Below are positions 769 to 14,951 of a DNA stretch of 64,000 bases, in pieces. Every line of letters starts with the position of its first letter. The first letter of the stretch is position 1. Below the pieces are notes generated by a model that searched no databases, had not been told where the DNA came from, and worked only from the letters and a program-made list of their open reading frames with translations. This DNA is from a virus. Lineage: Duplodnaviria; Heunggongvirae; Uroviricota; Caudoviricetes. The position numbers and the translations under genes were made by a program. The stretch lies in IMG/VR virus record IMGVR_UViG_3300029702_000002. One strand, given 5' to 3'.

Positions 769-1418
769 TCGTCATCCTCATCCGAGTCATCCTCATCACA
801 GGATGAGAGTAGTGGGTTAGTCATTCGCCCTACTTGAGTGGCGTAGCCACGCCGACAGAGATTGCGCAGCACACTGTATATTTCGAACATCTCGGTTCGT
901 TCATCGCCAACATCAAGCTCAGATGCTATAGCGTGGCATTCAGTCGCGAGAGCCGATATTTTCTGAAATAACTCTGCATTATTCACTGTTCGACTCCTGC
1001 GGCGTTCTGGTAGTGGCATCCAGTGTGTGACATTGCTAATCAGACCATATTCATTAGTTTGAGGATGGTTGCCGTTATCGTCTCCGTATTTAAGACTCTC
1101 CATAAAGCCATAATGCCTATCACCATTAACGCTCACAAAGCCGTAATAAGCAGGTATAACGCCGATCTCACACGTAACCAGTAAAGGAAAACTAGTTCTC
1201 CAATTTAGCTCGCCAATTACAGGCATTCGCTCACTACAGCTTATCCAACCATCCTTAGTTGCTGCTGTATTGGCATAGGCCTTACGGTGCTTCTGTAGCT
1301 CTGCTGCAATCGCTCTCACGACTTCAACTGGTGCCCTTGCAGCAAACTCAATGTTGGTGATCAGCTCATTAAGATATTTCTCGCTTGGGTAGCATTTCTT
1401 ATTGTTAACGGTGGTCAT
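765..1418 (-). CDS. hypothetical protein with acidic C-terminal tail
   Basis: ORF track 217 aa, ends DEDDSDEDDE; operon context. Confidence 0.5.
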   Translation of the reverse strand: MTTVNNKKCYPSEKYLNELITNIEFAARAPVEVVRAIAAELQKHRKAYANTAATKDGWISCSERMPVIGELNWRTSFPLLVTCEIGVIPAYYGFVSVNGDRHYGFMESLKYGDDNGNHPQTNEYGLISNVTHWMPLPERRRSRTVNNAELFQKISALATECHAIASELDVGDERTEMFEIYSVLRNLCRRGYATQVGRMTNPLLSSCDEDDSDEDDE

Positions 1419-1639
1419 TAGATAGCTCTCTCAACAACAAGCAATTCGTCGTAGTCATAATCCGTTTCGGAACCATCTGTACCGAACAGAGTCACTTTGT
1501 CACCTTCCATCCAGAAAGATTTAACCGCACATCGTTTGCCTTTAGATGTTATGACCACATCACCTGGGATTACATCTTCAGCGCGAACTTCTACTGTTCT
1601 CATCATGCTGACCCTCTTTGGTGAAAACGCCTGATGCAA
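1418..1639 (-). CDS. hypothetical protein (73 aa)
   Basis: ORF track; start overlaps stop of 765..1418. Confidence 0.4.
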   Translation of the reverse strand: MHQAFSPKRVSMMRTVEVRAEDVIPGDVVITSKGKRCAVKSFWMEGDKVTLFGTDGSETDYDYDELLVVERAI

Positions 1640-2021
1640 TACTGTTTATGATGCTGTCAGTACAGGGAGTAGAAAGCTGGGCATCTCCAGCTATTTTCAT
1701 GACTTCGACATCCGCATATCGAATACCGAGGTGTATCAGACCTGCTATACCTGACTTAAGTCGAACATTTTCCATAAACAGATCCTTTTCCCGCTGTTTA
1801 ACGGTCTCCAGCTCAACACGCAACTTCTCAATTTCGGCAGCCATGTAGTAACCAACCATAGCGAAAGTGGCGAAAGGGTAGTCAGAATCATCAGGAGATA
1901 CGGAGGCCATTAGCAGACCATCGTGCATGTTCTGGCTTCCATCAGTGATGGATACCGCATAAGAATCGCTGGTTTCCCGTTTATACAATACGACGACCGG
2001 GTTCTTGATTTTCTCTCTCAT
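1578..2021 (-). CDS. hypothetical protein (147 aa)
   Basis: ORF track; overlaps downstream ORF by ~60 bp in another frame. Confidence 0.4.
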   Translation of the reverse strand: MREKIKNPVVVLYKRETSDSYAVSITDGSQNMHDGLLMASVSPDDSDYPFATFAMVGYYMAAEIEKLRVELETVKQREKDLFMENVRLKSGIAGLIHLGIRYADVEVMKIAGDAQLSTPCTDSIINSIASGVFTKEGQHDENSRSSR

Positions 2022-2575
2022 TACGATGCCTCTAACTTATCTAACTCTTTCAGCCCTTCACGTACCGCGTTCACAATGCGTTCCAGATACTGGTATTTCG
2101 GGTTTGGTACCGTTGGCCAGTCGGCATACCACGGATCATCACCAAAGAGATTCAGCAGTTTGTTACCGACGCCGAAACAACAGCAGCTTTCTTTTACGTC
2201 ATCGGCGTTTTCCGCCTCGTCCCACATTTCGCGAGCCAGTACGGCGTCTATTTCTCTCTCTCTTCGTAACTTTATGATTTCTGACTTTACGAAAAGCAGA
2301 TTTGCATCGTTGTCATCGTCGACCGTGCTTAGCAGTTGAGGGTCGAAATTGTCGATTAGATAATCGTTGCTAACTCGCTTAATGAACGTCTGCACATCAT
2401 CACCGCCCATAGCAAACCAAGCCGCAGTCCACGCTTTTCCGTAGCAGGTGATGGTGATTCTTCCCTTACCAGGTTCGTAGTTTTCAATCATCACTCGAAC
2501 CGGATCGAGGCGTTCCAGATCCGTCAGCACAAAGGAAAGAACATCTATTTTTTCGACCTTCATGCAGCCTCCCAC
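2021..2575 (-). CDS. hypothetical protein (184 aa)
   Basis: ORF track; operon context. Confidence 0.5.
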   Translation of the reverse strand: MGGCMKVEKIDVLSFVLTDLERLDPVRVMIENYEPGKGRITITCYGKAWTAAWFAMGGDDVQTFIKRVSNDYLIDNFDPQLLSTVDDDNDANLLFVKSEIIKLRREREIDAVLAREMWDEAENADDVKESCCCFGVGNKLLNLFGDDPWYADWPTVPNPKYQYLERIVNAVREGLKELDKLEAS

Positions 2576-3201
2576 GCGCTCCAGATCAGCGATTTGTGTT
2601 TTTCATAACGTTTGATGTGTACCGGTTTCAGAAGCGCAATACCTTCAGTGACTTTCGCCTTTGCGCTTAATAACAACGGGTGTTCTATACCTATCCTCTC
2701 CATGTACTCGACAACATCAGCGTTGGCACCAATCTCCTTCCCGTTAAAAAGTACGTCCAGCATCAGCTCTTTCTCTGCAAGGTAGATAGCTGAAAACTCA
2801 GGATCGCGACTCACGATAGAAGAGGTATTGTCGAGCAGGTCAGCCAGCTTGATCATGCGCGTCTGCATGTCGAGATTTTGCTCCAGCTCCCGGACATTGA
2901 TGATGAAACGCTGTATTCGATTGCCGTCTTCTGGCCTTGCAATGTTGGTCAGAGCCTGAACCATTTCAGCTACGCGCTCACCGAAGTGATCACGAACCAT
3001 CTCTATGGTTACATGGGTGTCTTCGACCACATCATGCAGAAGCGCCGCGATTTGCATCTCCACGGTTCCGTCATGCAATGCAACAATCTCTCGGACAGCA
3101 ACCGGGTGGTTGATGTAGTTTTCGCCGGTATATTTTCTTTTCTGACCAACGCCACCATGAGCGCCAGCGGCGAACATATGTGCTTCGGAAATACTAGACA
3201 T
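2560..3201 (-). CDS. HD-domain (p)ppGpp hydrolase-like protein (small alarmone hydrolase type)
   Basis: Segment ENYINHPVAVREIVALHDGTVEMQIAALLHDVVEDT...FGERVAEMVQALT matches the recalled SpoT/Rel hydrolase HD motif (HPVAV...LLHDVIEDT). Confidence 0.8.
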   Translation of the reverse strand: MSSISEAHMFAAGAHGGVGQKRKYTGENYINHPVAVREIVALHDGTVEMQIAALLHDVVEDTHVTIEMVRDHFGERVAEMVQALTNIARPEDGNRIQRFIINVRELEQNLDMQTRMIKLADLLDNTSSIVSRDPEFSAIYLAEKELMLDVLFNGKEIGANADVVEYMERIGIEHPLLLSAKAKVTEGIALLKPVHIKRYEKHKSLIWSAWEAA

Positions 3202-3320
3202 TCTTAACTCCGTTGTTTTCTAGTTGTGGTTATTTTCACAAATAAGAAAAGGCAGAAAACAATTTATTTAAGGCCACAACTTATGGCCTTTATTTATTCA
3301 CGCAGAAGGATTTGTAGCGT

Positions 3321-3701
3321 CTAATTGCCGGATAAAATGGGGTGAGGTGCTTGCCAGTAGGCTCCACCGTTCCATGTGAATCCCATGCGAATAAGAGTGT
3401 TTATTGCGGCTTTGGTAGACTCAGATTCGACACTGGCTTTTCGAAACTCTTGAACCTCTTTCGCCAACTTGTATGTAATTGTGCTGGGGACGATTGCAGC
3501 CCAGCCTTTCTCATGACTGTTAATGACCATCTGGATGTGACCATCCAGAATAGGTTGATTAGGCATGTTATTGAAAATGTCTGCCTGTTTTTGAATGTGA
3601 AGAAAAAGCCTTGCCAGCTCCATTTGCTCACTACGAGACAAGGGATTATCAAGAGGGCTTTTTGCAAAAGCGGCTATACGCTGTGCGTCAATGCCAAACA
3701 T
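3321..3701 (-). CDS. hypothetical protein (126 aa)
   Basis: ORF track; operon context. Confidence 0.45.
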   Translation of the reverse strand: MFGIDAQRIAAFAKSPLDNPLSRSEQMELARLFLHIQKQADIFNNMPNQPILDGHIQMVINSHEKGWAAIVPSTITYKLAKEVQEFRKASVESESTKAAINTLIRMGFTWNGGAYWQAPHPILSGN

Positions 3702-4405
3702 CAGCGCACCTCACCATCTTTATGGCTGGAGCTAACTTCCGCCATTAAATGTCTTACGTAATCGACAAGAGAGCCACCTGGTGGAATCTGGCATTCCTCA
3801 ACTAACTGGAAGTAGATATCCGCTGCATTACGTGTATTACTACCCGCGCATATTCTTTCTTCCCGAAGTGCATGAAGCTCGTTGATCAAACGGTCACACT
3901 CTCCGTTACGCTGATCCACAACGGCCTCAAGCTCTGCGACGCGTTCACCTGGCGTCTTACCTTCTTTGCGTTGGATGGTAACGACGAAATCGCCAATTGC
4001 AGGGACGTTGTAATCCAGCTCAAGGTAGTTTTTGGCACCGCTGCGGACGAACTCACCCGCGAACATGGTGGCAAACATCGCAGAGGCCACTTCGCCGTTG
4101 AAAAGTGACTCCAGATCTAACGGAGTCCCGGCATCAAGAGCCTCTTTTGCTGTATCCATTGCATCCATGAACCGATCAAACTCATTGGCGCGCTTTTCCA
4201 GGTTTTTCCATTGCTCGCTCCAACGTTTGGCAACGAAGTCTATGAATGTTTTCGCGGATTCATCAAAATCCCCCTCAAACTTAACGATGCCTTTATCAAT
4301 AATGATCTGGCCTACCGCATCCTCTGCATAACCTTTCAATGTAAACTTGAAAGGAAAATCAGAATGGCCTGTGACGTTAAAATGCTCTAACTGGAGGTTG
4401 TTCAT
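3701..4405 (-). CDS. hypothetical protein (234 aa)
   Basis: ORF track; first gene of operon, promoter-type palindrome just upstream at 4448-4470. Confidence 0.5.
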   Translation of the reverse strand: MNNLQLEHFNVTGHSDFPFKFTLKGYAEDAVGQIIIDKGIVKFEGDFDESAKTFIDFVAKRWSEQWKNLEKRANEFDRFMDAMDTAKEALDAGTPLDLESLFNGEVASAMFATMFAGEFVRSGAKNYLELDYNVPAIGDFVVTIQRKEGKTPGERVAELEAVVDQRNGECDRLINELHALREERICAGSNTRNAADIYFQLVEECQIPPGGSLVDYVRHLMAEVSSSHKDGEVR

Positions 4406-4466
4406 GTGTTTTTCTCTTATCGTTTAGTAACTACATTCTTACACAAATTAGGTAAGTATTTACCTA

Positions 4467-6152
4467 TCATTTAACGCGTTTGAAAACGTATACGCTGACT
4501 GTGATCCCTGTGTCTTCAAACTCGTTGGTAAACGACTTCCCTCTGGCATAAACGTAATTATCCATCGTCATCCAGTCCAGTATTGGCGCAGTGCCCGGCA
4601 ATACTGCTACAAGACGCCCGCCGACTTTCAGATGCCCCAGCGCAGCCAGCGTGTGCTCTCTATGACGACCAAGCGAATACGGCGGGTTCATAACGATTTT
4701 GTCGAACTGATAACCTACGTTGTCCTCAGACCACTTTATGAAGTCGCAGCAAATCGTGTTCGTATACCCTTTTCCACGCAGGATATCAGCGAAGAGAGGT
4801 GCGATTTCTATGCAGGTAACATCTTCCAGATCGGCGTTAATATAGGCCAGAAGATCCCCACGTCCGGCTTGAGGCTCCAGCAGCTTCTCACCAGGCTTCA
4901 ATTCAGTGGCTCTGGCAACGTACTCAGCAATCAAGCGTGGGGTAGGGTAGAACTGGTGTGATTTTGTATCCGGTATTAAACCGGTAGCCACAATCGTATT
5001 TAGCGTATGGACGATGTCATACGGGAACTGCCAGTGCTTTTTCTCCTGCACGCCGCCAATGAAGCTCAGTGTGCGCTCAAGCTCTTCCACCTGCGACTTC
5101 TGGAGAGCTGAATCAGAGAAGTACCATACGCCTTTGTCTTTGCTCAATCGCCCGTCACGAAGCGCAGTGCGAACCGGCACGGAGATCGTCTTCTGGATTA
5201 ACCCGAACTGCTTTGGTGCCCGTGTTTTTGGCGCGGTGCGACATGGCGCGGGGATTGCAGCAGGCATACTGTAAGCCAGCACCTCATTCAACTTCCAGGC
5301 CACGTCAGGATGTATTTCAAAGTGAACGTTGCCGTTCTTGAACATCTTCACGCGCATCAGATTTCCATCGACGTTCATCCAGTCACCGGTCTGGCAGTCG
5401 TTTGCCCGATACGCAGCTGATAGCACCTCAGCAGTGCGGTTGATGGTAATAAATTCTTTGTGCGCGAAGAAATGAAGCAAGACACGCAGATCGTCGATAT
5501 AGTCCTCTTTGCGATAGTTCACACTAACGCTGTCCCGCCAGAAATCAGAAATGCAGTCAGCGATTATCAGACGTTCGCTGAAACCGTTTGTCTTATTTGT
5601 CTTGTGCGCAGGACTCAGCGCCTTAAACAAGCCATACACGCGCTCAGAGAGATATTTGTGCCTGTCATTCAGCAAATTAAGCATCGTGGGTATGACCGTT
5701 TCTGCTTTGAACTCCGGTACACCAACGAACTCTTTTACCTTCATCTGATAGCCGGTTCTGTCAGTTTTGATGACTTCCTGCTTACCCTCGATAAACTGCT
5801 CACGCCACTCGTCGCGACGGGAAGCTGGCATGATCAGCAGAACGTTAGTCATATCCGTGACCTTCCTCCAGTACTCGGCCCAAATATTCTGTTTCACCCA
5901 TTCCAGATCGACTTTATCCAGCCAAGCTCGATTCAAACGTGAGCGTTCTTCATCTGGTCGGTGGTTCAGTTGCAGCAGGCGATTAATCATGTTGTGGCGT
6001 TCGTCTCCATAAACGAAGTCGTGAACCTGATACATGAAGGCGATCTCCTTCTCGCACTCGGCCACAATTTCGTGGATGACGTTCATTTCCTGACGATAAT
6101 CGATAGCAGTGTTTGAGTTGGCATCGTCGATGATGGAAAGAGCTGTATTCAT
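4467..6152 (-). CDS. DNA N6-adenine methyltransferase with ~400-aa N-terminal domain of unknown function
   Basis: C-terminal LLEPQAGRGDL (SAM-binding motif I) and DKIVMNPPY (motif IV, NPPY) typical of amino-methyltransferases. Confidence 0.75.
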   Translation of the reverse strand: MNTALSIIDDANSNTAIDYRQEMNVIHEIVAECEKEIAFMYQVHDFVYGDERHNMINRLLQLNHRPDEERSRLNRAWLDKVDLEWVKQNIWAEYWRKVTDMTNVLLIMPASRRDEWREQFIEGKQEVIKTDRTGYQMKVKEFVGVPEFKAETVIPTMLNLLNDRHKYLSERVYGLFKALSPAHKTNKTNGFSERLIIADCISDFWRDSVSVNYRKEDYIDDLRVLLHFFAHKEFITINRTAEVLSAAYRANDCQTGDWMNVDGNLMRVKMFKNGNVHFEIHPDVAWKLNEVLAYSMPAAIPAPCRTAPKTRAPKQFGLIQKTISVPVRTALRDGRLSKDKGVWYFSDSALQKSQVEELERTLSFIGGVQEKKHWQFPYDIVHTLNTIVATGLIPDTKSHQFYPTPRLIAEYVARATELKPGEKLLEPQAGRGDLLAYINADLEDVTCIEIAPLFADILRGKGYTNTICCDFIKWSEDNVGYQFDKIVMNPPYSLGRHREHTLAALGHLKVGGRLVAVLPGTAPILDWMTMDNYVYARGKSFTNEFEDTGITVSVYVFKRVK

Positions 6153-6255
6153 AATTGCACCATTAAGAAAAGATTTGTTTAATGGTGCAATTATTTCAAA
6201 AATGAAAAGGTGCTAAATAGAAATTAACAGGCAATCCTTTAAATAAAGGTATTTG

Positions 6256-6927
6256 CTAATCATACTTTGAGGTATTTATAACCAGGATTTTGTTTGTATA
6301 AATCTTCTTAATATCCCATGTGACATTACCGGAATACCATTGACCGTTATATACTTGGTTTCCAGTTGCACCGGTCATAGTTACATAGACAGGTCTGTCG
6401 TAATCGGTTCGTCTATAGTTATAAACCCCAACCATAGCAGGCATTACCGCACACGGATACCCCACATCTATGGTAAATTGAGGGTCCGAAATAGTGATAA
6501 GTTTCGCATCAAGGGGCATCATCTCACCGTGATACACCATTGCGCCTGCGCTGTTATACATGGCAATGCCATAGCCAGAATGTGGTAACACCATATCAGA
6601 AAAAGCATAAACTGTTATTGTTCCGGGGCTACCATTTACCTGATGCAATCTGAGAGCATTGTATCCGTTACTATGCTCATGAATAAACATCATGTTCGCC
6701 TTATTACTGCTTTTTATGAAGAAAAAGCATGATTTGTTTGATGGGATTGATGTTTGAAAAACAGAACCTTTAGATGTAGACATTGTCCCTTTATTAATCA
6801 GATTTTGCGGAGTAAATTCTGGACTCATCCACAAACTTCCATCTGATTGAGTAATTGACATCCCGAACATAATTATCCCCAGTATGTGTATATGTAAGAA
6901 CCAAGCCCCGTATATAAATTTGACCAA
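6256..6927 (-). CDS. hypothetical protein (223 aa), possibly C-terminal part of a frameshifted gene
   Basis: ORF track; low-GC; overlaps upstream ORF 6873..7154 by 55 bp in another frame. Confidence 0.35.
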   Translation of the reverse strand: MVKFIYGAWFLHIHILGIIMFGMSITQSDGSLWMSPEFTPQNLINKGTMSTSKGSVFQTSIPSNKSCFFFIKSSNKANMMFIHEHSNGYNALRLHQVNGSPGTITVYAFSDMVLPHSGYGIAMYNSAGAMVYHGEMMPLDAKLITISDPQFTIDVGYPCAVMPAMVGVYNYRRTDYDRPVYVTMTGATGNQVYNGQWYSGNVTWDIKKIYTNKILVINTSKYD

Positions 6928-7154
6928 CTAACCGTATTTCCATTAATAGTAACTGTTGGAACAGGTAAATTAATGTAGTTGTCGTTGTTAAGAGGCATCA
7001 ATGACCACACGGCATGTAGCGATTTACCCGGTGGCGGATTGGAGTACGTCTTAGAGCCTGATGACGCAGTAAATCGATCAAGAAAAAAAATAGGAGTAAG
7101 GAAGCCAGTAACGTTAATTCCTTTATTGTTGTAAATCCCTGTACCGTATGCCAT
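6873..7154 (-). CDS. hypothetical protein (93 aa), possibly N-terminal part of a frameshifted gene
   Basis: ORF track; Gly/Asn/Thr-rich beta-type composition; same strand and contiguous with 6256..6927. Confidence 0.35.
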   Translation of the reverse strand: MAYGTGIYNNKGINVTGFLTPIFFLDRFTASSGSKTYSNPPPGKSLHAVWSLMPLNNDNYINLPVPTVTINGNTVSWSNLYTGLGSYIYTYWG

Positions 7155-7209
7155 TTTTCATCCTTGTTTTTTATCAACACAATATGGCCGATCATGCGGC
7201 CATATCAGA

Positions 7210-7779
7210 TCAATTAGAGCTTTGAAAGGCTTTGTGTGGCTGTGTTGCGAGGTTATGTCGATGGCTTAACTCACGCATCATGTCTTCAAGCCGACTCTTT
7301 GTGTCGTCGAGTTGGTCGGCCATTGCTCCCAAAAGCTGACGAACGGCCATCGGATCATCGCTGTTTAGTGATGGCATTTTATAACCCGCCTGAGAAGACA
7401 TAAGATTGAACGCAGACATCAACATCGTTAGAGAGGATTTAAGCCCAGCAATTTCACGATCTTTGCTGGCAATAATCGCCTCACTCTTGTTAGTGTCATC
7501 AGTTCGTTGAGTCTCGCTCACCATATCCAAAGTCGCCTGCAACTTATCAGCGCGCTCTTTTTCAGCAAGATAATGAACACCGAAATGATGTGCTAAAGCT
7601 ACAACCTGAGTTGGCTCTTCAAAGGTGGACTCAAAATTAAGTGCTGTAACCACTCTCTCAAATATGGAAACGTCTTCTATTCCTCGAAGAATGGCTAACA
7701 TTTTGACCAGTTCATTAGCATCCATTTCTTCGAATAAGGCGTTTTGTTCATCAGCTATCGCTTTGCATTTCTTGCACAT
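7210..7779 (-). CDS. hypothetical protein (189 aa)
   Basis: ORF track; conserved RBS/upstream motif at 7780-7815. Confidence 0.5.
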   Translation of the reverse strand: MCKKCKAIADEQNALFEEMDANELVKMLAILRGIEDVSIFERVVTALNFESTFEEPTQVVALAHHFGVHYLAEKERADKLQATLDMVSETQRTDDTNKSEAIIASKDREIAGLKSSLTMLMSAFNLMSSQAGYKMPSLNSDDPMAVRQLLGAMADQLDDTKSRLEDMMRELSHRHNLATQPHKAFQSSN

Positions 7780-7879
7780 GTGTTTTTCCTAATGCTTAAA
7801 CAAGTTGTTTTCTTATTGGCTTTATTGTGATGTGGCATAAAAGGGGAGCAAGCTAAACGTAAAGGTGCAAACTCTCTAT

Positions 7880-7916
7880 TTCGGTCAACGAAACACAAGG
7901 GCCATTTGGCCCTTGT
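7880..7916 (-). terminator. putative rho-independent terminator
   Basis: Hairpin ACAAGGGCC-ATTT-GGCCCTTGT (7895-7916) followed on the minus strand by a U-rich stretch. Confidence 0.45.
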
Positions 7917-8265
7917 CATTAACACGTTGCTTTACGGACTAGCGGATAAGCGAAGTAGATCGCCAGACCAATGAGGACGCCATCAGAAATGACAGACATC
8001 ATCTTTCCCGTAAAATCCACCAACACCGCCATCACCAGAAGAGCAATGACGGTCACAAGCCGGAATCTCTCAAGCATTAGAGATAAGCATCCAGTGACAA
8101 CTGAAGCGCCTGTGCGATCTTTTTCAGGGCCAGCTCTTCTTGTTCGCCAATACCGTCTTGGTCGGCAATATCAAGGCACAGACACAGTACATCTACTGCA
8201 TCATTAGTCCCGGCCACATCAGCCAGCTCACGTAAAGCCTGGGCATTAGCGCGGCGCGGTGAGGC

Positions 8266-8502
8266 TTAGTATTGAGCACGGATATTGGCGCTCATTTGGG
8301 CAATCTCACCAGCAAACGGAGAAAACGCAGGCAGAGCTGCAATTGTTTTCTCAAGAATGGAAATTTCCTTTGCGTCGCATGTGCCATCGGCATAGGAGAT
8401 CATGTACGCGCCCCACACGGTGGCTTCAACCGCATCTCGGTTCTCCATTTTTTTGACCTCGATAACAGCTTTACGAGTTTTCTTTTTGAATAAACCTAAC
8501 AT
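8266..8502 (-). CDS. hypothetical protein (78 aa); frame continues protein-like past an in-frame TAA
   Basis: ORF track; downstream in-frame 61 codons (~8080-8265) read ...DIADQDGIGEQEELALKKIAQALQLSLDAYL. Confidence 0.4.
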   Translation of the reverse strand: MLGLFKKKTRKAVIEVKKMENRDAVEATVWGAYMISYADGTCDAKEISILEKTIAALPAFSPFAGEIAQMSANIRAQY

Positions 8503-8595
8503 GTGCTTTCCTTTTGTTATTTGTTAAAACAAGTTGTTTTCTAGTTACATGAATTGCTTACGAAAAGACGGTCAATGCATATGCACTAACAACCG

Positions 8596-8793
8596 TCAGA
8601 AATAACCAAGTACCGAACCGACTGGAAAAACAAAAATCCCAACAACACGAGCCAAGGTCATACCAGCCTGAAACTGGAGATCACCAGAGCAAACGAGTTT
8701 TACAATGTTCGATACCCAACCGGCGGCCATGAGAGCTATGAAAGCCAGAATCGCCAGCCAAGTTTTTCCAAAGTGATTTGAAAACCAGTTCAT
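8596..8793 (-). CDS. small membrane protein (65 aa, two hydrophobic helices)
   Basis: ORF track; hydrophobic segments; ATGA coupling with 8790..9041. Confidence 0.45.
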   Translation of the reverse strand: MNWFSNHFGKTWLAILAFIALMAAGWVSNIVKLVCSGDLQFQAGMTLARVVGIFVFPVGSVLGYF

Positions 8794-9041
8794 ACAACCG
8801 CCTTAGTCACAGCATGATCCTGAGTAACTGGATGAACTTGAGGTATCGCATCCACCGTCATCCCATCCAGAGTGACAGGACGCTCTACTGGAGTGGTGGT
8901 AATTGTCGTCGACGGAGGTGTGGTGATGGATGAACCCGGCATCAAAAGGCTCTGGCCGGCTGGAACGGCTACCGTCGCCAGTGAAACTATAATGAGAACG
9001 TAGGCCATTGGTTTCAGCCTCTTTCTTTGAAAATTTTCCAT
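8790..9041 (-). CDS. small secreted/membrane protein (83 aa, Thr/Pro-rich)
   Basis: N-terminal hydrophobic segment MAYVLIIVSLATVAVPAG; coupled to downstream gene. Confidence 0.4.
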   Translation of the reverse strand: MENFQRKRLKPMAYVLIIVSLATVAVPAGQSLLMPGSSITTPPSTTITTTPVERPVTLDGMTVDAIPQVHPVTQDHAVTKAVV

Positions 9042-9297
9042 TCGAACTGTCCTTGTTGTTTTTCTCCTTCACTAAAGGCCGTGTACTTTTCGCTTCGCGT
9101 GAAGAACCAGAGGTAACAATCGCCCCCACGTTCGCAACAACTGACGCTTGCTTATCTAAACGTTCATTCAGCAACCGAACGGCAGTCTCTAGTTCATCAA
9201 GACGTGACAGAACACGACCGCTAAATAATTCGGCCAAAATTTGACGTAGTGAACGAGGACGTTTAGTTGCAGAAGTGAAATAGGTTTGACGTGCCAT
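8803..9297 (-). CDS. hypothetical protein (164 aa), overlaps 8790..9041 in another frame
   Basis: ORF track; N-terminal half protein-like, C-terminal half low-complexity; possible frameshift or overlapping genes. Confidence 0.3.
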   Translation of the reverse strand: MARQTYFTSATKRPRSLRQILAELFSGRVLSRLDELETAVRLLNERLDKQASVVANVGAIVTSGSSREAKSTRPLVKEKNNKDSSNGKFSKKEAETNGLRSHYSFTGDGSRSSRPEPFDAGFIHHHTSVDDNYHHSSRASCHSGWDDGGCDTSSSSSYSGSCCD

Positions 9298-9442
9298 GTG
9301 GACTCCATCCAGTGTCAGAAAGAGTTGCGGCTGGCGATTGCCAGCCGCCTTTCTCGTTCCATCCTGGAACTGTGTCTTACCGACACATTGTCATCCTGAC
9401 GCCGATAAGATACATGATTTAAAATGATAGGTAAACACTTAC

Positions 9443-10090
9443 TTACTGCTTGTTGTAAACAAAACCAATATCTTTCTTGTGAGGCATATCTGCTGCGGAA
9501 AAAGCTGCGATCTTCGCGAGTCGATCACATATTTCATTTTCACGATGCCCGGCGTGACCTTTAACCCACTTCCAGCGAACATTATGTCGACTTGCGGCCT
9601 CATCCAGACGCTTCCACAGATCAACATTCTTTACCGGTTTTTTGTCAGAAGTCATCCATCCATTGCGTTTCCACCATTTCATCCACTGTGTCATGCCGTT
9701 TTTCAGATACTGGCTATCAGAGTGCAAAATAACGTTGCATGGATATTTCAAACGCTCCAGCCCGATAAGTGCCCCCATCATCTCCATGCGGTTATTGGTG
9801 GTGCTATGAAAACCATCTGAGAACTCGCGTTCCTCACCACGATACTGGAGAACTATACCGTAACCGCCCGGGCCACCCGGATTTTTAAGGCAAGAGCCAT
9901 CACTGAAGATTTTCACGGTTTTAAGCTGGGGATTGAACTCTACGACAGGCGTTGTGGAATTGGTGCGGGGAGAATTTTTGTTTTTGGCTTTTTTGCGAGT
10001 TTTTTCTTGCGATCGGGCTGGTGTCTTCGTCGTCATATAAACTCCTGAATCAAGCGCCGCGCCGATTTTTTTCCTCGCGCGTGCGCACAC
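9443..10090 (-). CDS. rnhA: ribonuclease H (RNase HI family); true start probably internal Met near 10036
   Basis: VKIFSDGSC...GYGIVL...VILHSDSQY...KGHAGH..NE.CD motifs of RNase HI. Confidence 0.85.
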
Positions 10091-10624
10091 GCGTGCGTGT
10101 TAATAATTATTAAAATAAACAAATTACTTCCCAGAACAGGTTTTTATAAACCTGAACTGAACGAACGAAGTGAGTGAAGTTCACCTCGAACGAAGTGAGA
10201 GGTTGTCTTTTCAGGTAATACTCTCCCAGGGAGGTGAGTATAAAAATCCCTCACCAACCTGGTCGTTTCATAACCTGAAAAGTTATGGTCTAAGTCTACT
10301 GCCAGCTTAGACTTGGGAAGTTATGGATGACAGCACCCCAGAACCGAGATCTTCCCACACTTTATGAAGGGGAGTACTGGATTCAACCTCTCGAAACACC
10401 CCAGACTCGACAATCATAAAGTGACCCTTGTCTCCGCTCACTTTGGTTCCCCCTTCCCCGACACCTAAACGGCACCAGTTCTACGCTGGTAGTGAGCTTT
10501 TTTTAAACCTGACGCCAGTGACGCTTACCCCCACCCATCAGGTCGAGTCTCCAGTCTACGACTGGAAACTATCAGATCTTAGCACTTACAATTCACTTTA
10601 TGAATAGTTTGTACTTATCTATCA

Positions 10625-10876
10625 TTATGATTGATTATTTTCTCTACCATGTAGTTGAACATTCAAGGCAAACACCTCATTGATCAACTCACCTAAAAGC
10701 TGTTCAACAAGTTCGCGATGCTCGCCAAGATGCAAGCACTTAATTGCCCATTCGTACAAGTTGAAAGCCTGCTCACGATCTTTCATCATTTCACGAGCCT
10801 GGGCCAGAAAATCGCTCTCTACGAGCGCAACGACATTAGTCGGGTATGACATGTTGGTTTCCTTAAAGTGGTTCAT
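10625..10876 (-). CDS. hypothetical protein (83 aa)
   Basis: ORF track. Confidence 0.4.
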   Translation of the reverse strand: MNHFKETNMSYPTNVVALVESDFLAQAREMMKDREQAFNLYEWAIKCLHLGEHRELVEQLLGELINEVFALNVQLHGRENNQS

Positions 10877-10957
10877 AAAATCGATTTTAAAGCGTCTGGG
10901 AAGGGGTTCTAGTGGATTCTGTAGTGATGTTCAGGTCTGGAGTCTCTGATACAAAAC

Positions 10958-11016
10958 AGCCTGCTTCCGTATATTAATAATTAATATGTAGTTATTTATA
11001 TATACAGAAGCAGGCT
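10958..11016. repeat. ~60-bp palindromic element (copy 1 of 2): GCCTGCTTCCGTATAT ... ATATACAGAAGCAGGC around an AT-rich spacer
   Basis: Imperfect 16-bp inverted repeat; near-identical element at 58256-58312. Confidence 0.6.
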
Positions 11017-11037
11017 AATTACAGACGCCAGAACAAA

Positions 11038-11631
11038 CTAAGCAGCCTTCTTTGATGGTCTTTTTTTCCTGATCACATTCGCAGGATCATACCCTCCCAG
11101 ACTTTTCATGACGTCCAAAGGGATCTTGCTTATAGAGTGCCCAGCGTCCTGACAGAATCCTCGAAAAACAACGAGCATACTGCCACCTGGGTTGATGTTT
11201 ACTTCTACCTGACCCAGATTGACGTCAGGCTCGACAAACGCTACGCGGCCACCAGACAGAATAATCGTCTCATTCGCACACTCTGTTGCACGCTCATACC
11301 ACTTTGTATCTAGGGATTGAGGAATTAGCATCACTGTTGTAACTCCGCGAGCCTGCTCACGTATAGCCGCATCAATCCAGGGGGAGATTTTGGAGTAGGG
11401 TGGATTGAGGAAGGCAATTGTACCTGGCTGTCCCCATTCAGATTTCAAAGCATCACGCTCAACGCCTATGAAATTAGGCAGCTTTGCATTGTCCTTGTTG
11501 CAGGCAACGTCAACATCAAATGTCACTCCAAGATAACGTTGAATGGCAGAAAACAGCCAGTCAGGTGTTCTCCAGAGGTCACGAAGAGAGTTGTCGCGCT
11601 TTCGCTGTTTGATTTTTTCGGCTGCAATCAT
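11038..11631 (-). CDS. phage Dam-type DNA N6-adenine methyltransferase
   Basis: LWRTPDWLF ... FDVDVACN ... FLNPPY motifs. Confidence 0.8.
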   Translation of the reverse strand: MIAAEKIKQRKRDNSLRDLWRTPDWLFSAIQRYLGVTFDVDVACNKDNAKLPNFIGVERDALKSEWGQPGTIAFLNPPYSKISPWIDAAIREQARGVTTVMLIPQSLDTKWYERATECANETIILSGGRVAFVEPDVNLGQVEVNINPGGSMLVVFRGFCQDAGHSISKIPLDVMKSLGGYDPANVIRKKRPSKKAA

Positions 11632-11814
11632 CTTCTTTCTCGATAGGTAAGTAAATACCTATTTTTGCATTTGATTTTATGTCTGGCAATCAAATAAAAC
11701 GCGCCAGAAATGCAAACGAGAAGCTCTCTGGCGCGTTTTTGTGGTGCTGGGTATGTGATTGGCTTACCCAGCACTATAAAGCTCTCTATGGGCTTTATTT
11801 TCAGTAGGGGAACG

Positions 11815-12624
11815 TCATCCAATAGTGTACTCCGCGACAAACTTCTTAACGATCGGTGATTCTTCGTTCAATGTTAGATTTCCACCGTCTCTAACGGCAA
11901 TTCCTGTCGCTGGAAATACAGCCATCATTTGCCCAGCCTGAGTTGACGCAGTGTTAAGCGGATACGGTTTTTCTGGATTGCTCATTAAAGCAATCTTAAT
12001 ACTATTACTTGTAGCCTTCTTTTCTGTGAGAAGGTGTCTCATGGAAATTACCGTGTAAACACTAATATCTGGACCTCCGCTAAACCAATTAAGAAGGTTT
12101 AATATCTTATCCTTTGCTTTGACAGGCGCGTTATCGTAAGCGTCTAAAAAAATATCTTTCTCTAAACCCGCTTTATTGAAAAACGCATCATCTTTATCAC
12201 TTAGAGCAAAACGAGGACCTCTTGCAGTACGCGCTTTTTTATTTGTGTTGCTATCATTTGACTGTTGAACTTTTAATTCATCATTAATCTCAACACACCC
12301 TTCAACCTCGATGATCCCCAACTGTTCTGGTTCGTTTTCGGCAGCTTCACCACTTTCAGCGTTAATTACGTTTATAGGCTCATGCGCTAACTCCAACTCA
12401 TTTAAAGCTGAGCTGAAATCACCTGCTTTTTCTTCATTGAACAGTTCTTCGGCAACATCATCAGAACTCATGGCTACGCCAGCATCTAGGCCGAGCAGCA
12501 GATCGTCAATATCATCAGTATTTTCAACCTGCGCAGCTTTTTTTACTGGTTCATCAAGTGATTGCAACATGGCTGCCAGCTCGTCCAGATCATCATTTGT
12601 CATTACATTTTCAACCGAACTCAT
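11815..12624 (-). CDS. hypothetical acidic protein (269 aa)
   Basis: ORF track; Asp/Glu-rich N-terminal half. Confidence 0.5.
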   Translation of the reverse strand: MSSVENVMTNDDLDELAAMLQSLDEPVKKAAQVENTDDIDDLLLGLDAGVAMSSDDVAEELFNEEKAGDFSSALNELELAHEPINVINAESGEAAENEPEQLGIIEVEGCVEINDELKVQQSNDSNTNKKARTARGPRFALSDKDDAFFNKAGLEKDIFLDAYDNAPVKAKDKILNLLNWFSGGPDISVYTVISMRHLLTEKKATSNSIKIALMSNPEKPYPLNTASTQAGQMMAVFPATGIAVRDGGNLTLNEESPIVKKFVAEYTIG

Positions 12625-13830: not shown

Positions 13831-14475
13831 CTAATGAACGGTCACTCGGCCACAGAACCGGTTTTCTATCTTTTCTACAGCGTTATCTAGCATTCTCATC
13901 ACTGATCTGGCTCTTGCTTCAACTGTGCGATACCGGTTGGAAACGACGAAGGTTTGCAGATCTCCCCTTTGCGGATGCAGGTGAATTTTTGTCAGTTCCC
14001 CGCACATCAACGCATCAATACGAGCGACATACAGACGGTCTAATGATGCTCGTTGTGACCGCAAGTAATCTCGCTCTGAGAGAGCGACCCCCGGGCGTAG
14101 GCCAGCAATGGCGTTAAAGTTTGAAATAGCAGTTTTGTGGCAAAACTTTTCGATATCGAGGGCTAACTCAATACACCGATCTTCATTTGTATGGCCGACC
14201 AAATCCAACGTGTAGGCCATAACATCAGCAGGTGTGCGATCGATAACAAAGCCTTCAACACCACGCGTAAGTAGCTCTATATGCTTTGCTATTTCCATTT
14301 GAATCTGAAGCCGCTCATATAGAGGCATAGAATCACCTACTCGAACACCGAGGCGGCTCATCAAACTTCCGACACCAGCATCCACGTAAGGGATTCCGTA
14401 ATGTTTGTCGATATATTTAGCCAGGGTTGTTTTCCCACTGCCCTGAGCACCAGTGATCCCAATCCGGTAATCCAT
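13831..14475 (-). CDS. P-loop nucleotide kinase (dNMP kinase-like)
   Basis: Walker A GITGAQGSGKTT at N-terminus; nucleotide-metabolism operon context. Confidence 0.55.
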   Translation of the reverse strand: MDYRIGITGAQGSGKTTLAKYIDKHYGIPYVDAGVGSLMSRLGVRVGDSMPLYERLQIQMEIAKHIELLTRGVEGFVIDRTPADVMAYTLDLVGHTNEDRCIELALDIEKFCHKTAISNFNAIAGLRPGVALSERDYLRSQRASLDRLYVARIDALMCGELTKIHLHPQRGDLQTFVVSNRYRTVEARARSVMRMLDNAVEKIENRFCGRVTVH

Positions 14476-14951
14476 TACGACCTTCTGTATACGATCTGCG
14501 AAAAGCCAGGCTCTTCCTCGCTGGCTCGTTGGGTATAAGCTGTTTCAACAGGCACAAAGCCTAAATTACGCATCATGCTTGCCGGGAAGAATGCATCGGC
14601 GTTTGGCACATCAACGCCGATGTGGGAGAGCCAAATCTCTTCAACATGCGGCATGAATAGCGAGTAAATTTGTTCCCCGCCAATCACCCACACAGGCTCT
14701 GGTAATCGCAACACATCATCCACACCAGCAGGGTAGAATCCATTTGGTACAAAGCCATGAGAGCGCGTCAAAACGAGGTTATGACGCTCTGGAAGAGGGC
14801 GTTTGAGACTTTCCATCGTTTTACGCCCCATAACGACAGTGGCGTTTTTGGTGAGTCTCTTAAATAGCTTCAGATCGGTAGAACAACGCCAGGGGAGTTC
14901 ATTCGCTATGCCGATCTCATAGTTACGGCCAACAGCAGCGATCATCTTCAT
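14475..14951 (-). CDS. dihydrofolate reductase
   Basis: MIAAVGRNYEIGIANELPW...VVMGRKT pattern and ~158 aa length. Confidence 0.85.
   Translation of the reverse strand: MKMIAAVGRNYEIGIANELPWRCSTDLKLFKRLTKNATVVMGRKTMESLKRPLPERHNLVLTRSHGFVPNGFYPAGVDDVLRLPEPVWVIGGEQIYSLFMPHVEEIWLSHIGVDVPNADAFFPASMMRNLGFVPVETAYTQRASEEEPGFSQIVYRRS

Follow-up and report, generated by a model that had tools for sequence, protein, structure and literature searches.

What does the long N-terminal region of a large phage adenine methyltransferase do, and why would a phage-plasmid carry two such enzymes with no detectable restriction partner? These questions are raised by a gene at positions 4467–6152 of a 64,000-nucleotide stretch of DNA (hereafter the window) from the IMG/VR virus record IMGVR_UViG_3300029702_000002 (Caudoviricetes), and by a second, smaller methyltransferase gene at 11038–11631. 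The larger gene encodes a protein of 561 amino acids (aa), in which a DUF4942 module and a small basic domain precede a minimal gamma-class methyltransferase domain. We favor, with modest confidence, the view that this protein is an active solitary N6-methyladenine (m6A) DNA methyltransferase, whose minimal catalytic domain relies on the N-terminal two thirds of the chain for DNA binding, and that it protects the phage-plasmid from restriction. The points in favor of this view are the fixed architecture of the family, a ratio of nonsynonymous to synonymous substitution rates (dN/dS) of 0.084, the orphan status of the gene, the orphan methyltransferases found next to its homologs, the relatives of its catalytic domain in large phage proteins, the avoidance of palindromes in the window, and the variability of its basic region.

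Over their full length, positions 4000–12000 of the window share 97.5–97.7% identity with Escherichia phage Cyrano and phage CMS-2020a, and Salmonella phage SSU5 matches them at approximately 83% identity over 57% of the length. Klebsiella SSU5-like elements gave weaker matches, and the 109-kb E. coli plasmid pN1131_1 has a gene that is 99.9% identical to the large methyltransferase gene. These matches show that the window is part of an SSU5-type phage-plasmid of E. coli.

Gene integrity and domain architecture

The initial annotation described two amino-methyltransferases with NPPY motifs, and both were located. The large open reading frame (ORF; 4467–6152, minus strand, ATG start) has the motif at aa 489–492 (4677–4688), and the small one (11038–11631) has it at aa 76–79 (11395–11406). 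Neither is a chance ORF. The large protein matched PHROG 6263 ("DNA methyltransferase") along its entire length (aa 1–561 against profile positions 1–548 of 548, E = 3.9e-299), and its aa 140–295 matched Pfam DUF4942 (PF13708) above the gathering threshold (74.5 bits, cut-off 25). The dN/dS of the gene against its SSU5 ortholog was 0.084 overall; therefore, the large ORF is a real gene under purifying selection. It is already catalogued, under the names "putative DNA modification methylase" and "DNA methyltransferase" in two SSU5 records, and is an ordinary gene of predicted function. The gene and its parts are as follows.

4467–6152, minus strand: gene for the 561-aa DUF4942 and gamma-class N6-adenine methyltransferase protein (PHROG 6263; RefSeq "DUF4942 domain-containing protein"; ortholog of SSU5_095)
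5886–6152, minus strand: N-terminal segment, aa 1–89, acidic (isoelectric point (pI) 4.9), helical and poorly conserved, with 25% mean pairwise identity
5238–5885, minus strand: conserved DUF4942 core, aa 90–305, ending at an AIPxxxR motif, as stand-alone DUF4942 proteins do
4971–5237, minus strand: variable basic linker and small alpha/beta domain, aa 306–394, pI 9.8, with an invariant G366
4467–4970, minus strand: minimal gamma-class class-I S-adenosylmethionine (SAM) methyltransferase domain, aa 395–561 and stop codon, with no C-terminal target-recognition domain
4938–4955, minus strand: QFYPTP, aa 400–405, the "TP" helix cap before the catalytic core, motif X of TaqI/EcoKI-like enzymes
4851–4880, minus strand: LEPQAGRGDL, aa 425–434, motif I, the SAM-binding loop
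4677–4688, minus strand: NPPY, aa 489–492, catalytic motif IV, with N489, P490, and P491 invariant among 21 homologs

Motif I (E-P-x-A-G-x-G), NPP, and QFYPxP are invariant or nearly invariant in the alignment of these 21 homologs, which reaches down to 33% identity. A second alignment of 55 sequences, down to 26% identity, revealed a block of conserved residues at aa 90–305. The invariant residues of this core are W95, M108, W116, T156, L179, S180, H183, T185, N186, I196, W258, D262, H277, N289, L292, and R305. It is the best conserved and most constrained part of the gene (dN/dS 0.039), with a mean pairwise identity of 50%. The segment at aa 306–394 (28%) is the least conserved structured part; its modeled elements are helices at 325–332, 352–364, and 381–390 and strands at 335–337, 342–344, 368–370, and 373–375, and the small domain also accompanies the methyltransferase domain in PHROG 9133 proteins. 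The N-terminal segment from aa ~20 onward is the helical start of the DUF4942 module. A full-length AlphaFold model, with a predicted local distance difference test score (pLDDT) of 81, has a helical and beta N-terminal region, a small alpha/beta unit at aa 325–390, and a Rossmann domain at aa 395–561.

One homolog, P0045, shares 94% identity with the window protein in the core and only 49% in the methyltransferase domain, and therefore C-terminal halves have been exchanged between lineages. This exchange, together with the variability of the basic aa 306–394, fits a diversification of specificity. By eye, the alignment of P0045 looks like an intragenic mosaic with a Klebsiella-type C-terminal half.

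The catalytic domain and its relatives

The C-terminal domain is a class-I SAM-dependent Rossmann-fold domain with motifs in the order X (TP helix), I, and IV (NPP(Y/F)), as in the gamma class. The final strand of the catalytic fold closes the protein at aa 561; because the chain stops directly after that fold, there is no C-terminal recognition domain. Scans of the flanking ORFs and the annotations gave no HsdS-like gene near the large gene. M.TaqI and the EcoKI HsdM subunit each have a C-terminal recognition domain or an HsdS partner, whereas the window protein has neither; conversely, its 394-aa N-terminal region (DUF4942 and the small basic domain) has no counterpart in those two enzymes. 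In the absence of a C-terminal recognition domain, DNA binding and the choice of sequence would have to come from the N-terminal two thirds of the chain.

M.TaqI was the best match of the family profile among PDB sequences (E = 1.9e-5). With PADLOC, the methyltransferase domain matched mad2 (E = 1.1e-15) and a Type II methyltransferase model (E = 3.7e-10), and a Type IIG model also touched it; Pfam gave only sub-threshold methyltransferase matches at aa ~400–520. No recognizable PD-(D/E)xK or other nuclease domain precedes the methyltransferase and no recognition domain follows it, so that the protein does not have the organization of a Type IIG/IIL fusion. Fold matches of the catalytic domain include METTL5, KsgA, and Erm; thus, the fold alone would also be compatible with an RNA or protein substrate. 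According to Iyer et al. (2017, PMC5512222), the TaqI/EcoKI-like adenine methyltransferases of the gamma class in polyvalent proteins are marked by a TP-capped helix followed by NPP(Y/F).

The closest relatives of the catalytic domain outside the family are phage proteins of 1,200–3,900 aa: aa ~395–520 matched PHROGs with profiles 1,259–3,925 positions long. "Structural/virion" proteins of Vibrio, Pseudomonas, and Aeromonas phages were matched as well. We read these very large proteins as putative DarB-type polyvalent proteins; DarB of phage P1 is an antirestriction protein (PMC5512222). The window protein resembles the DarB-type methyltransferase module in its TP and NPP(Y/F) signature and its mobile-element setting. 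However, it has only 561 aa, has DUF4942 as its N-terminal partner, and has no detected SF2/SNF2 helicase. The DarB-type arrangement, with a C-terminal SF2/SNF2 helicase and an N-terminal LPD36 domain, is not present, as the protein ends after the methyltransferase. The GxGU-type motif of LPD36 was not recognized by eye; the local motif at aa 365–368 is (I/L)GG(V/I).

Homology to the plasmid enzymes M.EcoGIX and M.BceJIII was considered and rejected, as those belong to the beta class with a DPPY motif and share only the common fold. Both are orphan, plasmid-borne, promiscuous, and single-strand-specific m6A methyltransferases, and M.EcoGIX protects pESBL from restriction on entering a new host (PMC7736820). 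Their likeness to the window protein is one of functional analogy only.

The DUF4942 module

The initial annotation left the N-terminal ~400 aa without an assignment. Most of this region, aa ~20–305, does have an assignment, to DUF4942, which is itself an uncharacterized family. The boundaries follow from a stand-alone 282-aa DUF4942 protein (Pfam E = 8e-50) encoded by the IncK2/Z plasmid pRHB13-C14_3, which aligns to residues 23–303 of the window protein (hhalign probability 99.2%) and shares the AIPxxxR end. Its gene adjoins a mobC/nikA/relaxase module and has no methyltransferase nearby. Stand-alone DUF4942 proteins share with the window protein W95, M108, W116, T156, the LS..TN motif, H277, N289, and the closing AIPxxxR. 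Unlike it, they lack the small domain and the methyltransferase, and have tyrosine in place of H183 and cysteine in place of H281. These two replacements weaken the idea of a metal-binding or catalytic HxExH site in DUF4942. PHROG 38825 (a 299-position profile), which matches aa 129–302, may be a stand-alone phage form. A DUF4942 ORF (orf56/L0010) follows YeeV/YeeW-like ORFs in the SRL island, and DUF4942 is also listed in SPI-3, in each case as an annotation label only (PMC6980539, PMC10893270).

A model of aa 1–395 built on 55 sequences was confident (pLDDT 87; predicted template modeling score (pTM) 0.80). No relative of this model was found among solved structures, the family profile gave no match to the N-terminal domain among PDB sequences, and a Foldseek search against BFVD returned only two matches, to uncharacterized phage proteins of 247–271 aa. 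Therefore, the N-terminal region is no recognizable target-recognition domain, nuclease, or helicase; the possibility that it is a known target-recognition domain had been raised at the outset, and neither fold nor profile searches bear it out. The literature searched yielded annotation mentions and no experimental work on any DUF4942 protein. As an autonomous form exists without a methyltransferase, DUF4942 may do more than serve the catalytic domain.

Orphan status and restriction pressure

Pfam and PADLOC scans of approximately 20 flanking ORFs gave no nuclease or defense match, and the only matches in the defense library were those of the two enzymes themselves to methyltransferase models. 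The annotations read for Cyrano, SSU5, and pN1131_1 (for the last, bases 1–50,000 and 66,844–108,529) name no restriction enzyme either. The statement of the initial annotation that no restriction endonuclease is adjacent thus agrees with these scans and annotations, within which the protein is a solitary methyltransferase, with no cognate restriction endonuclease adjoining it or elsewhere on the element. A restriction partner for the large gene was rejected on the same grounds. The ORFs at 3701–4405, 6256–6927, 7210–7779, and 11815–12624 have no convincing family match, and a novel nuclease partner among such neighbors is unlikely. Different genes flank the large gene and its homologs in the phage-plasmid, lambdoid prophages, and an IncHI2 plasmid.

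Twelve of the 64 6-bp palindromes are absent from the window (e.g., AAGCTT, TCTAGA, CTCGAG, and CCATGG), where 9–18 copies of each are expected, and GAATTC occurs 2 times against 18 expected. The median ratio of observed to expected counts is 0.57 for 6-bp palindromes and 0.95 for non-palindromic hexamers (Mann-Whitney p = 3e-9). This strong avoidance of 6-bp palindromes means that the element is under restriction pressure; the element thus has both site avoidance and methyltransferases. Among 4-bp palindromes, avoidance is limited to CTAG and GTAC, which are clearly depleted; GATC (260 observed, 246 expected) and TCGA are at expectation. These site statistics do not point to the targets of the enzymes, and guessing at them from such counts was rejected.

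Distribution on mobile elements

The combination of DUF4942 and a methyltransferase is widespread and not confined to this element. A HMMER scan with aa 1–395 gave 614 clusters at 50% identity. Among the best 149 of these N-domain relatives, 134 are 450–600 aa long, and 131 of the 134 carry NPP[FYW]. The two-part architecture is that of a fixed and widespread family. The large gene is present in 249 of 5,426 complete E. coli genomes (4.6%), almost always on plasmids of ~105–120 kb. By tblastn, the N-domain was found on 2,535 of 72,556 PLSDB plasmids (3.5%), of which 1,376 are typed conjugative (~27% identity).

The family also occurs in lambdoid prophages. Distant homologs in Variovorax and an Enterobacterales genome lie in prophage early regions, among repressor, replication, and recombination genes, with solitary N6_N4 and C5 methyltransferase genes beside them. 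The Salmonella IncHI2A plasmid p751-mcr, a conjugative mcr carrier, encodes a 563-aa DUF4942-methyltransferase protein 1.8 kb from a Dam-family gene (locus L008, 3560–4372 and 6153–7844). This is the same pairing as in the phage-plasmid.

Shorter forms were also encountered. In the E. coli SSU5-like plasmids NZ_CP062914.1 and NZ_JBWDPT010000001.1, only the gene part for the first ~150–160 aa is kept, and the short PHROG families 16000 and 25525 match such remnants. These short forms look like truncated or replaced alleles.

The start-codon repeat and a CRISPR spacer match

Directly upstream of the ATG of the large gene at 6152, a perfect 14-bp inverted repeat occupies 6153–6166 and 6179–6192 of the window (AATTGCACCATTAA, a 12-nt spacer, TTAATGGTGCAATT). 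As RNA, it is predicted to form a 16-bp hairpin in which a Shine-Dalgarno-like GGTG and the first two bases (AU) of the start codon are buried (z-score of the region, -4.85). The repeat occurs once in the window and is perfect in the window and Cyrano and degenerate in SSU5 and Klebsiella pJN2-26. For this reason, we consider it a lineage-specific feature and rejected the hairpin as a conserved regulatory feature of the family. It may serve translational or operator control in its own lineage.

Nine chromosomal matches to the large gene were counted in complete E. coli genomes, and the one inspected is part of a CRISPR array (type I-E) that E. coli AST85 (NZ_AP043644.1) carries. There, a 32-nt spacer, the first one and adjoining cas2e, matches positions 5446–5477 (plus strand) of the window perfectly, within the DUF4942 core. 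An ATG at 5443–5445 lies directly 5′ of the match; ATG is a functional protospacer-adjacent motif in type I-E systems.

Proposed function and alternative explanations

We propose that the C-terminal 167 residues form a minimal gamma-class domain that would bind SAM and flip and methylate adenine through NPPY. DNA binding and any choice of sequence would be provided by the N-terminal two thirds, namely DUF4942 (aa ~20–305) and the variable basic aa 306–394. The likeliest determinants of specificity would be the variable basic region and the exchangeable C-terminal half, and the conserved DUF4942 core probably contributes something constant, for instance clamping onto DNA, targeting, or the binding of a partner. 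Our best guess for its role is the targeting of DNA. Methylation of the DNA of the element and its lysogen would then protect the element from restriction systems on entry into a new host. The product of 11038–11631 would act as a second, independent methyltransferase, and protective self-methylation by the two enzymes, as suggested in the initial annotation, is plausible.

Several points weigh against this proposal. The literature searched gave no motif, activity, or restriction phenotype for any family member, including the SSU5, pHCM2, and IncHI2 methyltransferases. Target-recognition domains are usually much less conserved than the DUF4942 core, and DUF4942 also exists as the autonomous 282-aa protein; it is therefore probably not simply a recognition domain. 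Several neighboring ORFs have no detectable family, and the annotation of the 109-kb pN1131_1 was read for bases 1–50,000 and 66,844–108,529.

A protein with two functions would account for the conservation of the core differently. We tentatively entertain the idea that DUF4942 is an unrecognized autonomous module of mobile elements, with a fold unlike solved structures and its own role in establishment or counter-defense (e.g., by binding to DNA on its entry, to part of the replisome, or to a defense protein of the host). In the subfamily of the window protein, it would have acquired a minimal adenine methyltransferase, and the result would be a small protein with two activities, analogous to the giant polyvalent proteins. 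Somewhat more doubtful is the fuller version in which the protein brings two counter-defense activities together, one in a DUF4942 establishment or anti-defense module with its own activity or partner and the other in an adenine methyltransferase of low specificity. This version draws on the occurrence of DUF4942 alone beside mobC/nikA/relaxase on the IncK2/Z plasmid, its listing in the SRL island and SPI-3, and PHROG 38825, which is maybe its stand-alone phage form. Further points in its favor are the constraint on the core, which is the strongest in the gene, the invariant polar residues there (S180, H183, T185, N186, D262, H277, N289, and R305), and the lack of any relative of solved structure for a confidently modeled domain. 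The occurrence of this kind of catalytic domain in very large phage proteins, which we read as polyvalent, points in the same direction. However, no catalytic fold or motif was recognized in DUF4942, and the replacement of H183 and H281 in the stand-alone branch makes a metal or catalytic site less credible. The near-universal fusion with a methyltransferase in the subfamily is equally expected if DUF4942 is a needed DNA-binding module.

Methylation might instead serve epigenetic housekeeping, controlling replication, packaging, or the lysis-lysogeny switch of the plasmid prophage rather than protecting it. Dam methylation controls pac cleavage in phage P1, the present element, a plasmid prophage, encodes replication functions of its own and has both methyltransferases in the early/replication arm, GATC is not avoided, and the perfect inverted repeat overlapping the start codon in the E. 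coli lineage suggests regulated expression. We nevertheless regard this explanation as unlikely: the family occurs in unrelated backbones (lambdoid prophages and IncHI2) with other replication and packaging systems, and the swapping of the C-terminal half between lineages is hard to square with a co-evolved cis-regulatory target. Methylation of RNA adenine or of a host or phage protein is less likely still. Weak sub-threshold rRNA methyltransferase matches (NCBIfam and Pfam) and the minimal size of the catalytic domain, like that of RNA and protein enzymes needing partner subunits, would agree with it, but the profiles rank DNA enzymes first (M.TaqI, the PADLOC Type II methyltransferase and mad2 models, and the PHROG DNA methyltransferase families). 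A TP-capped helix with NPP(Y/F) is also what marks DNA enzymes of the TaqI/EcoKI type (PMC5512222), and on mobile elements the gene is found together with further DNA methyltransferases. It seems very improbable that the gene provides the methylation part of a cryptic restriction or defense system whose nuclease is a family-less neighbor or, in a Type IIG-like fusion, DUF4942 itself. The four flanking ORFs without a convincing family match leave room for such a nuclease, and the PADLOC models for mad2 and Type IIG match in the catalytic domain; yet these matches are limited to the methyltransferase domain, the neighbors differ in prophages and the IncHI2 plasmid and in part even among SSU5-like elements, and the gene is stably carried by the 249 complete E. 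coli genomes.

In itself, the finding in the window is ordinary: two orphan phage methyltransferases that had already been catalogued. Clinical Enterobacterales commonly carry SSU5-type phage-plasmids, and the DUF4942-methyltransferase also occurs on IncHI2 plasmids, one of them with mcr. If these enzymes do broaden host range by defeating restriction, they would affect the spread of resistance-carrying elements and would be relevant to phage therapy and the engineering of such elements. The residual interest lies in DUF4942, a strongly constrained domain without a relative of solved structure that is found on 3.5% of PLSDB plasmids.

The Dam-family methyltransferase

The second enzyme is encoded at the following position.

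11038–11631, minus strand: gene for a 197-aa phage Dam-family N6-adenine methyltransferase, with NPPY at aa 76–79 (11395–11406)

Its product matched Pfam Dam (PF05869) with 131.8 bits (cut-off 28.1) and TIGR01712 with 113.9 bits (cut-off 97.05). With both thresholds exceeded, a full-length match, and the NPPY motif, it belongs to the phage Dam family. Its relatives were found in 1,979 phage records. The Dam-type enzymes that Stx-converting phages encode share 39% identity with it. Compared with the family, the protein has nothing unusual and is, as judged by these matches, an ordinary phage Dam-family enzyme. Characterized members of the family target GATC, and GATC is the probable target of this enzyme too.

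Gene setting

The large gene lies in a long minus-strand block of early and accessory genes. According to the annotations, the block contains Ea22/Eaa-like genes and genes for an HD-domain protein, RNase H, an exonuclease, dihydrofolate reductase, thymidylate synthase, and ribonucleotide reductase. The element has replication genes of its own (dnaE, a DnaB-like helicase gene, and a partial RepB-family initiator gene), and its early/replication arm holds both methyltransferase genes.

Two further genes of pN1131_1 have apparent counterparts in the window. In the nucleotide-metabolism block, the PGAP name of the dihydrofolate reductase is "trimethoprim-resistant dihydrofolate reductase DfrA51", and the window ORF at 14475–14951 (minus strand) is its apparent counterpart by gene order and length. 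This counterpart would be a housekeeping gene of the phage-plasmid flagged as a resistance gene. The plasmid also has a 768-nt "LEM-3-like GIY-YIG domain" gene on the strand opposite to its neighbors, and the window ORF at 58423–59190 (plus strand), with the same length and strand, is probably its counterpart. This gene looks like a homing-endonuclease-like gene and not a restriction enzyme.

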